Source of the DNA: Octopus vulgaris
Lineage: Eukaryota
DNA length: 64,000 nucleotides
NCBI GenBank assembly: GCA_951406725.2
Contig: OX597829.1
Span: 6,758,001-6,822,000, forward strand
Direction: 5' to 3'
Made by a program: the position numbers and the translations under genes. Shown in pieces: positions 20,866 through 58,213 of the stretch (its first letter is position 1; each line of letters opens with the position of its first letter). Under the pieces are notes generated by a model, which was not told the origin of the DNA, searched no databases, and worked only from the letters and a program-made list of their open reading frames with translations.

Positions 20866-20878
20866 AAAAATGTGTGAC

Positions 20879-20984
20879 GCTTACAGCACTAGGTTTCCCA
20901 AGCGGTCACCCACCTAAGTACTAACTAGGCTCGACGTTGCTCAACTTCGGTGACCGGACGAGAACCGGTGTTTCTACGTGATAT
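20879..20984 (-). pseudogene. 5S rRNA-like copy lacking about 10 nt at the 5' end
   Basis: Minus strand ATATCACGTAGAAACACCGGTTCTCGTCCGGTCACCGAAGTTGAGCAACGTCGAGCCTAGTTAGTACTTAGGTGGGTGACCGCTTGGGAAACCTAGTGCTGTAAGC follows invertebrate 5S rRNA, with internal promoter A-box and C-box regions. A T5 run lies 8 nt downstream. Confidence 0.9.
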
Positions 20985-21099
20985 ATGCAGAAGGAGATAT
21001 GTTTAAGAATTTACAAAAAATTGGCGAGGAATAACTGACCTGTCTGACATTTTCTCTCTTGTCTGTAGCTAAGGAATGCTTGCTATTTTAAGGGATAGG

Positions 21100-23449: not shown

Positions 23450-23740
23450 TAAAAAAGGAGAAATAAGCCAATAAGCTATTTTAAAACTTTGAGCGAGATG
23501 CAAAGAGTAGCATTACGGAATCGTAACATATATAGTTGCCAATCGAATGTGGCGTCATATGCAGACCACTGCTTCTGACATTTGTAGCCCCAGGAAGGCA
23601 TCTCCTCCAGCTGGCTATCTACACACATTTTGTGTCCGATTAGTATTTTCGAAGGGAGTAAATAGCTGCTATCTCTAGCTTTACGTGATGCACACAGACT
23701 CGAGATTTGGGGTTGTAACCCGTCCTCAACGTGTGTAAGT
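23450..23740 (-). mobile_element. Diverged monomer of the 352-bp hammerhead repeat family
   Basis: tagccccaggaaggcatctcctccagctggc...tgtgtcc...agtattt and cacacagactcgag...cgtgtg align collinearly with the 55851-56867 unit. Confidence 0.8.
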
Positions 23741-53755: not shown

Positions 53756-55764
53756 ATGTATATAGTGAAAAGTGCAAGATCCCCTTATCTACCAAGGAAA
53801 TTATTTTATTGGATAATTCTGAACTTGAATATGTCTCTGATTTTCATATGTGTCTTCATTATAGTAGCAAATGAATTAGGAAACCTAACAAGAGGTCTTT
53901 CACTAGCATCAATGATGCTGAGAGCTTTTAAGAAGCGCGATCAACAACATATGGAATGTCTACGAACAGCTCGAAGATATCTCGCAAACAACTTGCACAT
54001 GCAAGTGCTACCAGTCGAAAGCTTCGCATACCGGAAGCCAGCAAGTGTATGGGGCCATCAGGAAAGAATGCGCGCAGTTTCGGGGTCTACCTCTCGACCG
54101 TATCATTGTGCACTTTCACTGATATGATGCCCAGCATGCTAGATCAACTGGTTATCAAATAAAGCTCCATAGTCTAGCCATCGCTCATCGTCTCTTTTTA
54201 ACCAAATCCCGTGGCTAGCCTTTGGTTTAGATATCGGTCATGTTGGTCCCAAAATGCTTTTAAAGTATCACTTTCGAAACAACCCTTGAAAATGAGATTA
54301 AACCCTGAAGATGCACACAGACAAGAAGATTGTAAAATGTTACATTTACAGTCTATATTATAGATACCATTACGAAATTAGTGTCGAAATAGTGTGATAA
54401 TAGTAATTCTTCACAAAAAAGGCGTCGCGTTAATAAGAAAGAGGCTGACATAGTGTAATAGCTCAGAAGCAACGTAAGTTGATTTGCCAAAACCTAGCAT
54501 AGAGGAACCATAGAGGTGGACACAGGTATACCTATTGAATAGCACATACACATTCAGTATATTTGAGCGTATCTGTTGTTGCACACGCATGCGTGTGAGT
54601 GATTATGAAGTATGTGAATATAACTGAAGTATTACAATAAATATTTAACTTTTAAATATTATGTAACAAACAGGGGTTCTTTAATAATAGCTTTGGCATT
54701 TATATTTTCTGTATTTAGGTAGTATCCATGACCAGTCAGAATATATTCAGCATTACACAGCATCTAATATTATAAGCTACCGAATGTCCCTAGGGTTACC
54801 TTTAATCGAATATAACTATGATCGATGCCATTATACCGGTGAACATCCCGCCTTATTGGTTATATGTAGACCACTGCTATTTCTCGTAGGTTGAGTGATC
54901 TCATAGCTCGGTATGATATTTTTTTCGTTCTTACTAGAACTAGCAACCTGATAGCTCCCGCGGGATACTTTATTGGATATCAAAACAGTTATTTTTTGGC
55001 AACAAATGGCAAAATATTTTTTTTTCTGCCGATGAGTTTTGTAAGAAAATTCTGTCAGTTTGTCAAAAGAGAAAGAACATGACTAATGGTATTTTTACAG
55101 TGTCTGCGATAATTGAGAAAAAGGAAGTACAACAGCTATTTTATTCCCAAACAAGAAACGTCTGGCAAGAGAATGAACTCCCCTACATATAGACAAAGGA
55201 GTGTGTGAGGCATTAAACCGTTGTAAAAAAAAGACTAACGGCTTAGTAAAACAATTATCATTCTCTATGCCTTACATTTAGATGCAGTAACAAGATTTCA
55301 TTTTATCAAAGCTTTCATAAAAAGGCAGTTTTGTGCATCGGAATTCAGTCTGAAATGAAAGACTGTGAACAAAATTTGAAATCACATTGTCAATGCTAAG
55401 TAGACGTTTTTTTTTTTTTGCAAGTAGACTTTTAAATTACATAATTCAAGATGTCTTTGCATTATTCAATAAAGTAAAGCGAGAAGTGATCCACACGAGA
55501 TTTGTGTTGGCTTTTACATCAGCGATATATAATAATTTCTCTATAACGGTGATATGGGACAATGTTAACTCTAGTTTCTCTTTCTGGAGTTTCTAGTGTT
55601 ACTAAACTTGATAAAGGAAATAGAAATTATCCCTCTCTTTCTCTTTCGCTCTCCTTCACACACATTGCTTTATTTATTTATTCTGCTTCTCTCTCCTTCA
55701 TTTTTCACCCCAAACAAACTCACACACAAACACACATATATATGTATACAGAATATATACACAC

Positions 55765-55803
<39 letters not shown>

Positions 55804-56059
55804 GTAATCATACATACATACATACATATATACATATACATATATATATGACAATGATAAATATCAAAGTGAGTTATATACAGTAGCGGTAACACATCGT
55901 GACGTATATTTGCCATCTCAATATGGCTACCCCTAAGGGTGAATGCTACTGTAGTTTTTAGCCCCAGGAGGACACACTCCTCCAGCTGGCCATAGACACA
56001 CTTTCTGTGTCCTGTCAGTATTTGCAAAGGAAGTCATCCTTCCCGTTCAACTTATGATA

Positions 56060-56104
56060 CACACGGACTCGAGTTTCGAAGTATTGACCTCTCGTCAGCG
56101 TGTG
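56060..56104 (-). ncRNA. Type I hammerhead ribozyme (array copy 1)
   Basis: CACACG CTGACGA GAGG TCAATA CTTC GAAA CTCGAG TC CGTGTG. Confidence 0.92.
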
Positions 56105-56411
56105 ACAATCATAGTTGTCGGCGAGAATTAGATTTCCTTCACAAATACTTATACTTTTTCCAGCGTCCACTGTCGCTGATATTGAAAAAGTGAAATCAAA
56201 CAATGATAAATATCAAAGTGAGTTATATACAGTAGCGGTAACACATCGTGACGTATATTTGCCATCTCAATATGGCTACCCCTAAGGGTGGATGCTACTG
56301 TAGTTTTTAGCCCCAGGAGGACACACTCCTCCAGCTTGCCATAGACACACTTTCTGTGTCCTGTCAGTATTTGCAAAGGGAAGTCATCCTTCCCGTCTTC
56401 AACTTATGATA

Positions 56412-56456
56412 CACACGGACTCGAGTTTCGAAGTATTGACCTCTCGTCAGCGTGTG
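56412..56456 (-). ncRNA. Type I hammerhead ribozyme (array copy 2)
   Basis: Identical motif to copy 1. Confidence 0.92.
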
Positions 56457-56763
56457 ACAATCATAGTTGTCGGCGAGAATTAGATTTCCTTCACAAATAC
56501 TTATACTTTTTCCAGCGTCCACTGTCGCTGATATTGAAAAAGTGAAATCAAACAATGATAAATATCAAAGTGAGTTATATACAGTAGCGGTAACACATCG
56601 TGACGTATATTTGCCATCTCAATATGGCTACCCCTAAGGGTGGATGCTACTGTAGTTTTTAGCCCCAGGAGGACACACTCCTCCAGCTGGCCATAGACAC
56701 ACTTTCTGTGTCCTGTCAGTATTTGCAAAGGGAAGTCATCCTTCCCGTCTTCAACTTATGATA

Positions 56764-56808
56764 CACACGGACTCGAGTTTCGAAGTATTGACCTCTCGTC
56801 AGCGTGTG
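56764..56808 (-). ncRNA. Type I hammerhead ribozyme (array copy 3)
   Basis: Identical motif to copy 1. Confidence 0.92.
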
Positions 56809-57237
56809 ACAATCATAGTTGTCGGCGAGAATTAGATTTCCTTCACAAATACTTATACTTTTTCCAGAGGTCAATACTTCGAGAGGTCAATACTACGAGA
56901 GGTCAATACTTCGAAACTCGAGTCCGTGTGTATCATAAGTTGAAGACGGGAAGGATGACTTCCCTTTGCAAATACTGACAGGACACAGAAAGTGTGTCTA
57001 TGGCCAGCTGGAGGAGTGTGTCCTCCTGGGGCTAAAAACTACAGTAGCATCCACCCTTAGGGGTAGCCATATTGAGATGGCAAATATACGTCACGATGTG
57101 TTACCGCTACTGTATATAACTCACTTTGATATTTATCATTGTTTGATTTCACTTTTTCAATATCAGCGACAGTGGACGCTGGAAAAAGTATAAGTATTTG
57201 TGAAGGAAATCTAATTCTCGCCGACAACTATGATTGT

Positions 57238-57282
57238 CACACGCTGACGAGAGGTCAATACTTCGAAACTCGAGTCCGTGTG
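57238..57282 (+). ncRNA. Type I hammerhead ribozyme (array copy 4)
   Basis: Same motif on the plus strand; predicted cleavage after GUC at 57276. Confidence 0.92.
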
Positions 57283-57487
57283 TATCATAAGTTGAAGACG
57301 GGAAGGATGACTTCCCTTTGCAAATACTGACAGGACACAGAAAGTGTGTCTATGGCCAGCTGGAGGAGTGTGTCCTCCTGGGGCTAAAAACTACAGTAGC
57401 ATCCACCCTTAGGGGTAGCCATATTGAGATGGCAAATATACGTCATATATATATGTATATATATATATATATGTATATGTATGTATG

Positions 57488-57518
<31 letters not shown>

Positions 57519-57939
57519 GGATGTATATGTATATATATGTATATATATATATATCTATGTATATGTATATATATATATATCTATATAGATATATATATCT
57601 ATGTATATGTATGTATATATATATATGTATTTCAACTACATTATGGCTCAAAGGTAACTGTTTACTCAGCTCTCCCATGGTCTCTTTCTCAGCTCTACCC
57701 GCCCCTCCTCCGTTTCACACCTAGGGAGATTTTTGATCTTGATCACCAGCTTGGCCTTCGTGTATGAATAGTACCAATAATATATTAAGTTAAAAACCAT
57801 CTTGCATGAGAGAGTCGAAAGTACACACACGTTTCGAACACACATCTTGTGTATAAACGTAAAAGGAAGTGTATCTCTGTTTCTCTGTCTGTCAGTGTGC
57901 GTGCGTGCACATACACTTTATATATATATATATATATAT

Positions 57940-58213
57940 CACGTGACCACGTGACCGACCAGGCAATCAGATGTTGCAACACCTCGCTGGTCACAATGCG
58001 CTTCGCATTGTTTTAGCCTTCAAATGACGCCACCCAGCTGGCTAAGCGAGCAGGCCAACAGAAGAAAGATTGAGAGAAAGTTGTGATGAAAGAGTACAGC
58101 AGGGATCATCACCACCCCCTCCCGGAGCGTTAGGTGTTTTCGCTCAATAAATACAACCGCGATTCTACGACTGCGAGTCCACTACCTAAACCACTGGGCC
58201 ATTGAGCCTCCAC
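57940..58213 (-). mobile_element. SINE with a B-type head and body but a different 3' tail
   Basis: 58065-58213 matches B (gtggaggctcaatggcccagtgg...ctgctgtactctttcatcacaactttctctc); 57940-58060 is unrelated to the B tail. Confidence 0.8.

Follow-up and report, generated by a model that had tools for sequence, protein, structure and literature searches.

Paired fixed ends in head-to-head insertions of a 352-nt hammerhead repeat in the genome of Octopus vulgaris

Animal retrozymes are described as non-coding tandem arrays with units of 150–450 bp, each carrying one type I hammerhead ribozyme, with a GC content below 50% and strong self-pairing; circular RNAs are proposed to serve as templates for tandem cDNA, mobilised by Penelope-like elements (PLEs) (Cervera and de la Pena 2020, PMC7229834; Li, Clavereau and Pollet 2026, 10.64898/2026.07.22.740005). 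In the available text of PMC7229834, the entry of retrozymes into DNA is only proposed. PLEs with an endonuclease insert with an inverted, 5′-truncated copy at the 5′ end and a tail of 30–40 bp that is often found at one end only (Craig et al. 2021, PMC8557442). The head-to-head arrangement is their commonest form, for which self-priming has been proposed (Arkhipova et al. 2013, PMC3846280). The Naiad, Neptune and Hydra groups target (TA)n, with target duplications of 8–10 bp (PMC8557442; PMC3846280). As far as their available text goes, both papers attribute the inverted form to self-priming or to endonuclease resolution and call the mechanism open, and PMC8557442 calls the origin of inverted insertions and the one-sided tail an open question.

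The Anolis PAc system has been studied in vitro. Its targets are AT-rich, both of their strands are cut and extended, and reverse transcription begins at two positions inside the RNA, which delimit the tail (Frangieh et al. 2024, PMC11167929). Its template is linear, ribozyme cleavage is dispensable and unprocessed RNA is the main substrate; the start site is equal between the strands, and a one-of-each rule is not stated in the available text (PMC11167929).

Here we analyse a 64,000-nt stretch of the O. vulgaris genome (assembly GCA_951406725.2, contig OX597829.1, positions 6,758,001 to 6,822,000; hereafter the window), in which an earlier note, made from the sequence alone, had picked out two inverted arms of a ribozyme repeat and had proposed that both broken target ends primed cDNA synthesis on a circular or multimeric RNA. 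The locus is a real, young retrozyme insertion with a Penelope footprint. Its element class, inverted form and tail are already published, and the layout itself is ordinary. The family to which it belongs is short, young and numerous, and supplies counts that separate the models.

The insertion and its repeat unit

The insertion is a head-to-head pair of arms, with 2.9 and 1.6 copies of a hammerhead repeat of 352 nt, set in a TA microsatellite (Table 1). Coordinates and hammerhead matches bear out the reading that the sense strand runs leftwards in the left arm and rightwards in the right. TRF on the left arm returned a period of 352 with 2.9 copies at 99%, and the 551 nt over which the arms overlap are 100% complementary. 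The type I hammerhead model RF00163 gave four full matches (30.4 bits, E 4.4e-5, under the gathering score of 34), present in all four complete copies, which fix the sense strand; the right arm starts within a fifth hammerhead whose 5′ core is missing. Folding of the unit, shifted by one base, gave a z-score of -6.89 against 100 shuffles.

Table 1 Features of the insertion in window coordinates. Unit positions are counted from the predicted hammerhead cut.
Feature	Position	Strand	Remarks
Left (TA/CA)-type microsatellite target	55736..55850	.	TRF row 55736-55849 plus sequence
Left copy of 12-bp palindromic target-site duplication (CATATATATATG)	55839..55850	.	
45-nt tail, unit 174-218	55851..55895	-	found at left end of insertion only
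Left arm	56867 to 55851	-	1017 nt = 2.89 units; unit 255 to 218; ends at long (tailed) site
Type I hammerhead motif	56060..56104	-	predicted cut after 56066
Type I hammerhead motif	56412..56456	-	predicted cut after 56418
Type I hammerhead motif	56764..56808	-	predicted cut after 56770
27-nt junction insert between arms	56868..56894	+	TRF period 16, 3.3 copies
Right arm	56895 to 57445	+	551 nt = 1.57 units; unit 323 to 169; ends at short site
One full cut-to-cut unit, 352 nt	56925..57276	+	strong fold
Type I hammerhead motif	57238..57282	+	predicted cut after 57276
Locus-private C>T, unit 338 (hammerhead stem II)	57262	+	also 56910 (+) and 56080, 56432, 56784 (-)
Right copy of 12-bp target duplication	57444..57455	.	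first 2 nt common to arm end
Right (TA)n-type microsatellite target	57446..57630	.	TRF

No reading frame within the repeat exceeds 75 aa and, unlike an autonomous PLE, it has no RT and GIY-YIG frame; an LTR-type layout was absent from every locus examined. The repeat is dispersed, with 751 exact matches to one 27-nt pattern and 2900 candidates in a first look at the 2.8-Gb assembly. A protein-free, multi-copy unit of 352 nt with a hammerhead in each copy is best assigned to the animal non-LTR retrozymes, with predicted self-cleavage and a putative circular form. Rfam miRNA matches were rejected as microsatellite noise. An older subfamily (L183-L211), whose copies are about 90% alike and about 81% identical to the young unit, has the same permuted unit and the long end; in its hammerhead, read by eye, the core is kept and stem II is changed yet still paired.

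The outer ends of the focal insertion, ...atttatcattgt and ...aatatacgtca, both adjoin (TA)n-type repeats, and neither coincides with the cut site; what had been said of them, that they abut microsatellite and stop at different unit positions away from the cleavage site, is confirmed. The 12-mer given in Table 1 is a candidate target duplication, which starts at 2 of the 4844 positions of the window's TA-rich tracts, only here, with the caveat of its low complexity. The junction insert consists of additional copies of the 16-mer with which the right arm begins, a join of the templated-insertion type. The earlier note had missed this insert, the target duplication and the fact that the two registers are the family's two fixed ends.

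Within the left arm, two small deletions and one substitution set the outermost unit (55851-56065) apart from the other copies, and one substitution (56337) does so for the next unit; these private changes are copying errors, later mutations or consensus errors. Elsewhere in the window lie an old fragment of the same family (23570-23657, minus strand, 79% identical to unit 37-125) and a 5S rRNA-like copy (20878-20994, minus strand, 68.6 bits). Beside the locus, at 57960-58200, is a short repeat of extreme copy number, with a summed contig depth in the millions. When contigs of four public runs were compared with window 55000-58200, none spanned the locus and repeat contigs swamped the arms, so it is the recurring architecture and the insertion scars that back the assembly here.

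Outer ends and pairing across the family

We tabulated arm polarity and end positions across the family. The first sample, which is biased towards long arms, combined all 40 loci scored in the first look with the loci behind the first 100 of the 751 pattern matches, ordered by position, and came to 69 independent loci with 102 outer ends after removal of duplicates. Ends were assigned to a short window (unit 164-175) or a long window (unit 213-221), which together make up 6% of the unit. The tallies exclude diverged old fragments (below about 88% identity), duplicate fetches, L061 (the same as L054) and, in L172, the second copy. Loci L034 and L049, which have short inverted stubs, were scored as single-armed, and in L018 a copy of 70% identity, tail-to-tail with the young one, was taken as a separate older insertion.

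The earlier note had expected random end registers with a constant head-to-head polarity, and had named fixed ends or equally frequent tail-to-tail junctions as findings against its model. The ends are fixed: 99 of 102 fall in the two windows, 61 of them short and 38 long. All 33 two-armed loci of the first sample are head-to-head, 30 with one short and one long end, none with two of a kind and three with one off-register end, so that the classifiable loci are short–long in 30 of 30 cases (p 9e-10 against 0.5). An outside check on 32 further long-ended loci, taken from the first 100 of 280 long-end pattern matches and thus a set unable to show short–short pairs, found a second arm at 26, all head-to-head, of which 21 were short, one long and four off-register. 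One additional hand-picked locus was short–long. The predicted polarity therefore holds at 60 of 60 two-armed loci, with tail-to-tail junctions not seen; 52 are short–long, one is long–long, none is short–short and seven have one off-register end.

Different end registers are the known ‘tail’ pattern of Penelope-like elements, here with a tail of 43–47 nt across the family, and the focal locus, with ends at 169 and 218, is an ordinary short–long member. The statement that each arm is longer than one unit holds at the focal locus and does not extend to the family: among 22 position-selected two-armed loci, 8 have two arms of more than one unit. Single arms in the first sample are short-ended in 30 of 36 cases, and the unpaired state is commoner for short than for long ends (Fisher p 0.001). 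Across the assembly, forward-strand pattern matches numbered 292 for the short end followed by TA, 65 for the long end and 0 for the cut site; the short- and long-end patterns differ in stringency, and only forward counts were used, reverse-strand counts being inflated by overlapping matches.

Inner ends scatter, and 0 of 162 lie within 3 nt of the cut site. Among 28 inner joins examined, 18 overlap by 1–6 nt (a number inflated by alignment end effects), two overlap by 14–16 nt, four are blunt, two have 1–3 extra nucleotides and two have templated inserts of 26–27 nt; the joins look like end joining. At L036, a two-armed insertion in unique sequence, the target duplication is 11–13 bp.

The inner ends of long-ended arms cluster at unit 117-149 (21 of 72, permutation p 0.001), and those of short-ended arms show no clear excess there (13 of 90, p 0.2). 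This stretch forms the 5′ side of a long hairpin predicted at unit ~120-190, which would be whole only in first-pass products started at the long site. Two further observations concern duplication of whole insertions. L054 and L061, about 1 Mb apart on G000:C1, have an identical insertion and junction in opposite orientation, marking a segmental duplication or a duplicated haplotype, and at L172:2557-2952 an entire small two-armed insertion is tandemly duplicated across its TA flank.

Template and priming

The suggestion that both arms came from a common template is upheld by the haplotype they share. At the focal locus a private T at unit 338 is present in all five hammerhead copies, in both arms; the 24-mer containing it has five exact matches in the assembly, all at this locus, and the family allele, C, has 469. 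At a second two-armed locus, six of six assembly matches to its private allele lie inside its own arms. A third candidate private allele proved non-private, with four matches within the locus and two elsewhere. Over 15 shared polymorphic sites, discordance was 2.8% within an arm, 4.8% between the arms of a locus and 24.2% between loci, although these comparisons are non-independent and subfamilies may have been active in turn. Rare alleles in the first sample occurred in all copies of their locus in 26 cases, in some copies in eight and in one copy in 191, and where multi-copy rare alleles fell at sites covered by both arms, 14 of 17 were present in both. The private base change in all five hammerhead copies of both arms therefore favours one template read repeatedly from both ends, and the simplest reading is a single mutant unit read round several times from both ends. 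As far as sequence can tell, a circular template is likely.

We tentatively propose, as the best explanation at somewhat short of even confidence, that a borrowed Penelope-type reverse transcriptase and endonuclease used both ends of the cut target to prime DNA synthesis on a single, probably circular RNA. Of its parts, two-ended priming from two fixed sites is probable, and, granting that, we lean towards a circular monomer as the template. Staggered nicks about 12 bp apart would supply two 3′ primers, one of which would start at the short site (~170), usually first, and the other at the long site (~216). Each product would extend towards the RNA 5′ end, past the ribozyme cut site and then round again, and end joining, through microhomology or templated insertion, would link the inner ends of the two. 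Prior use of the short site is suggested because lone arms are mostly short-ended and long ends are mostly partnered. A further possibility, put forward with less confidence than the scheme itself, is that a dimeric enzyme holds one circular RNA and gives the short site to the first nicked strand and the long site to the second, the two active sites chasing each other round the circle. If the proposal is true, an ordered two-primer rule would account together for the inverted arm, for the tail on one side and for arrays of several units, and each insertion would preserve in the genome a direct record of an animal ribozyme circle copied by rolling-circle reverse transcription.

No partner enzyme was found among the GIY-YIG matches, of which 150 of 6136 candidates were scored. 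Comparison of 40 GIY-YIG loci with the 352-nt unit matched only two old, separate copies, and a search of 20 such loci at E ≤ 0.05 returned no hammerhead. In 30 copies of the older subfamily the upstream sequence was again the circularly permuted unit, and no flank of coding length was common to them. A young Penelope-like family (L117-L132) with an intact 781-aa RT and GIY-YIG frame ends in (TA)n; its overlapping upstream frame of 479 aa has no clear family, and a simple motif scan gave no hammerhead. A Neptune-type Penelope-like copy (L133:3795-6992; RT and GIY-YIG, CX4CXXC motif) has 775-nt head-to-head arms in TA with an extension of about 26–30 nt on one side only, a layout like that of the focal insertion. 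Neither shares visible sequence with the unit, and the Hydra-1_Obim hammerhead row in the supplement of PMC8557442 is dissimilar by eye to the hammerhead of the repeat.

The alternative that survives best keeps two-ended, two-site Penelope-type priming and replaces the circle with a linear, uncut read-through transcript of a tandem source array. The PAc results agree with it, in that unprocessed RNA is the main substrate and ribozyme mutants are harmless in vitro (PMC11167929, available text), and an uncut multimer explains equally well why arms cross cut sites, where no outer end and none of the 162 inner ends fall. Mixed templates in some cases are suggested by the eight rare alleles that several, but not all, copies of their locus carry. 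A linear template would, however, require a tandem source in which three or more units carry the private allele, and the assembly holds none for either of the two loci tested; moreover, linear sources yield only shorter daughters, yet near-identical arms reach six units (L037). We consider this reading unlikely.

Self-priming, in which a single priming event is followed by fold-back copying and the tail is what endonuclease trimming leaves at the far end, is the explanation derived from PLEs (PMC3846280, PMC8557442, available text). It accounts directly for haplotypes common to both arms, a few loci (L034, L049, L083) have palindromic centres or short fold-back stubs, and the inner registers lie no more than 7 nt apart in 5 of 33 loci. 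Fold-back needs one arm to contain the other and so cannot make 18 of the 52 short–long pairs, in which neither arm is long enough; in 37 of the 52 the long arm cannot copy the short arm. The inner registers are otherwise spread over 0–176 nt, the tail corresponds to two reverse transcription start sites in vitro (PMC11167929, available text), and loci with both arms below one unit and both ends in register are already seen (for example L086 and L156). Self-priming is improbable. Two target-primed products from two fixed start sites fit the arm lengths that exclude fold-back, the scattered inner registers and the lack of L1-type register sharing. Both target ends look primed, judging from the target duplication and these lengths, and the claim of the earlier note falls in its random-register form.

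Two separate insertions in one TA tract, or the later growth of a short insertion through tandem duplication, with conversion making its units alike, would be in keeping with the reuse of TA tracts (in L018 an old copy adjoins a young one, and L069 has two insertions), with the local expansion proposed for retrozyme arrays (10.64898/2026.07.22.740005, available text) and with the duplicated locus in L172. This is very unlikely, given that the arms have no TA between them, that all 60 pairs are head-to-head, that the ends follow a one-of-each pattern, that one target duplication encloses both arms and that the private allele also occurs in the junction insert. An assembly artefact joining repeat copies is scarcely credible: the lack of a spanning contig and the small deletions of the outermost left unit, which resemble long-read consensus errors, speak for it, but the architecture recurs at 60 loci with differing inner junctions, and mis-joins do not make a unique junction insert, a private allele and a target duplication. 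Least credible is priming of broken ends at random registers on circular or multimeric RNA, the model of the earlier note, whose polarity prediction holds but which fails because the ends are fixed within 6% of the unit.

Several observations count against the proposal of two-ended priming on one, probably circular, RNA. The RF00163 score is under threshold, some rare alleles occupy only part of their locus and the third allele was non-private; the long–long locus and the seven with an off-register end break the pairing rule. This single assembly could lack a tandem source that carries the private allele, and later conversion could make arms share alleles.

Comparison with described systems

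LINE-1 twin priming, to which the earlier note had likened the insertion, produces head-to-head arms with the RNA 3′ directions outward and a flanking target duplication; microhomology places the second primer at variable sites, and the arms are approximately complementary parts of one RNA. The focal locus shares the head-to-head arms, outward 3′ directions and target duplication. The repeat differs in that both start sites are fixed, poly(A) is lacking and the arms overlap by whole units. The analogy also fails on register, as no more than 20 nt separate one arm's inner start from the outer end of its partner in 7 of 33 loci, about chance level.

The 352-nt repeat fits the animal retrozymes in its non-coding tandem units, unit size, type I hammerhead, GC content below 50% and strong self-pairing, cleavage here being predicted. 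Its two-armed form, fixed ends and tail are undescribed in the available text of PMC7229834 and 10.64898/2026.07.22.740005, in which the word ‘inverted’ is absent from the former and occurs once, in a reference title, in the latter, and ‘octopus’ occurs in neither. With PLE insertions the repeat has in common the head-to-head inverted, 5′-truncated copy, the one-ended tail, the (TA)n target and the short target duplication; it differs in having no reading frame, a tail of 43–47 nt, arms that may both exceed one unit and no sequence link to any autonomous family examined.

PAc resembles the repeat family in its AT-rich targets, in the two internal start sites on either side of the tail and in the cutting and extension of both strands (PMC11167929, available text). 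The repeat family shows one-of-each pairing, whereas PAc has no strand difference in start site, and since that site is the same on both strands the PAc system does not itself predict such pairing. A 352-nt substrate with two mapped start sites is now available to the existing in vitro assay.

In the freely available literature covered, which for PMC11167929 and the preprint means the available main text, short–long pairing, evidence for one template and twin priming in these elements are not stated. The evidence that separates the models is the strict short–long pairing, the length pairs that exclude fold-back and the private mutations in every unit of both arms. Class and layout are known, because published PLE and retrozyme features and the Neptune-type copy in this genome match them; what the family adds is mechanistic, namely strict pairing, exclusion of fold-back and one template for both arms.
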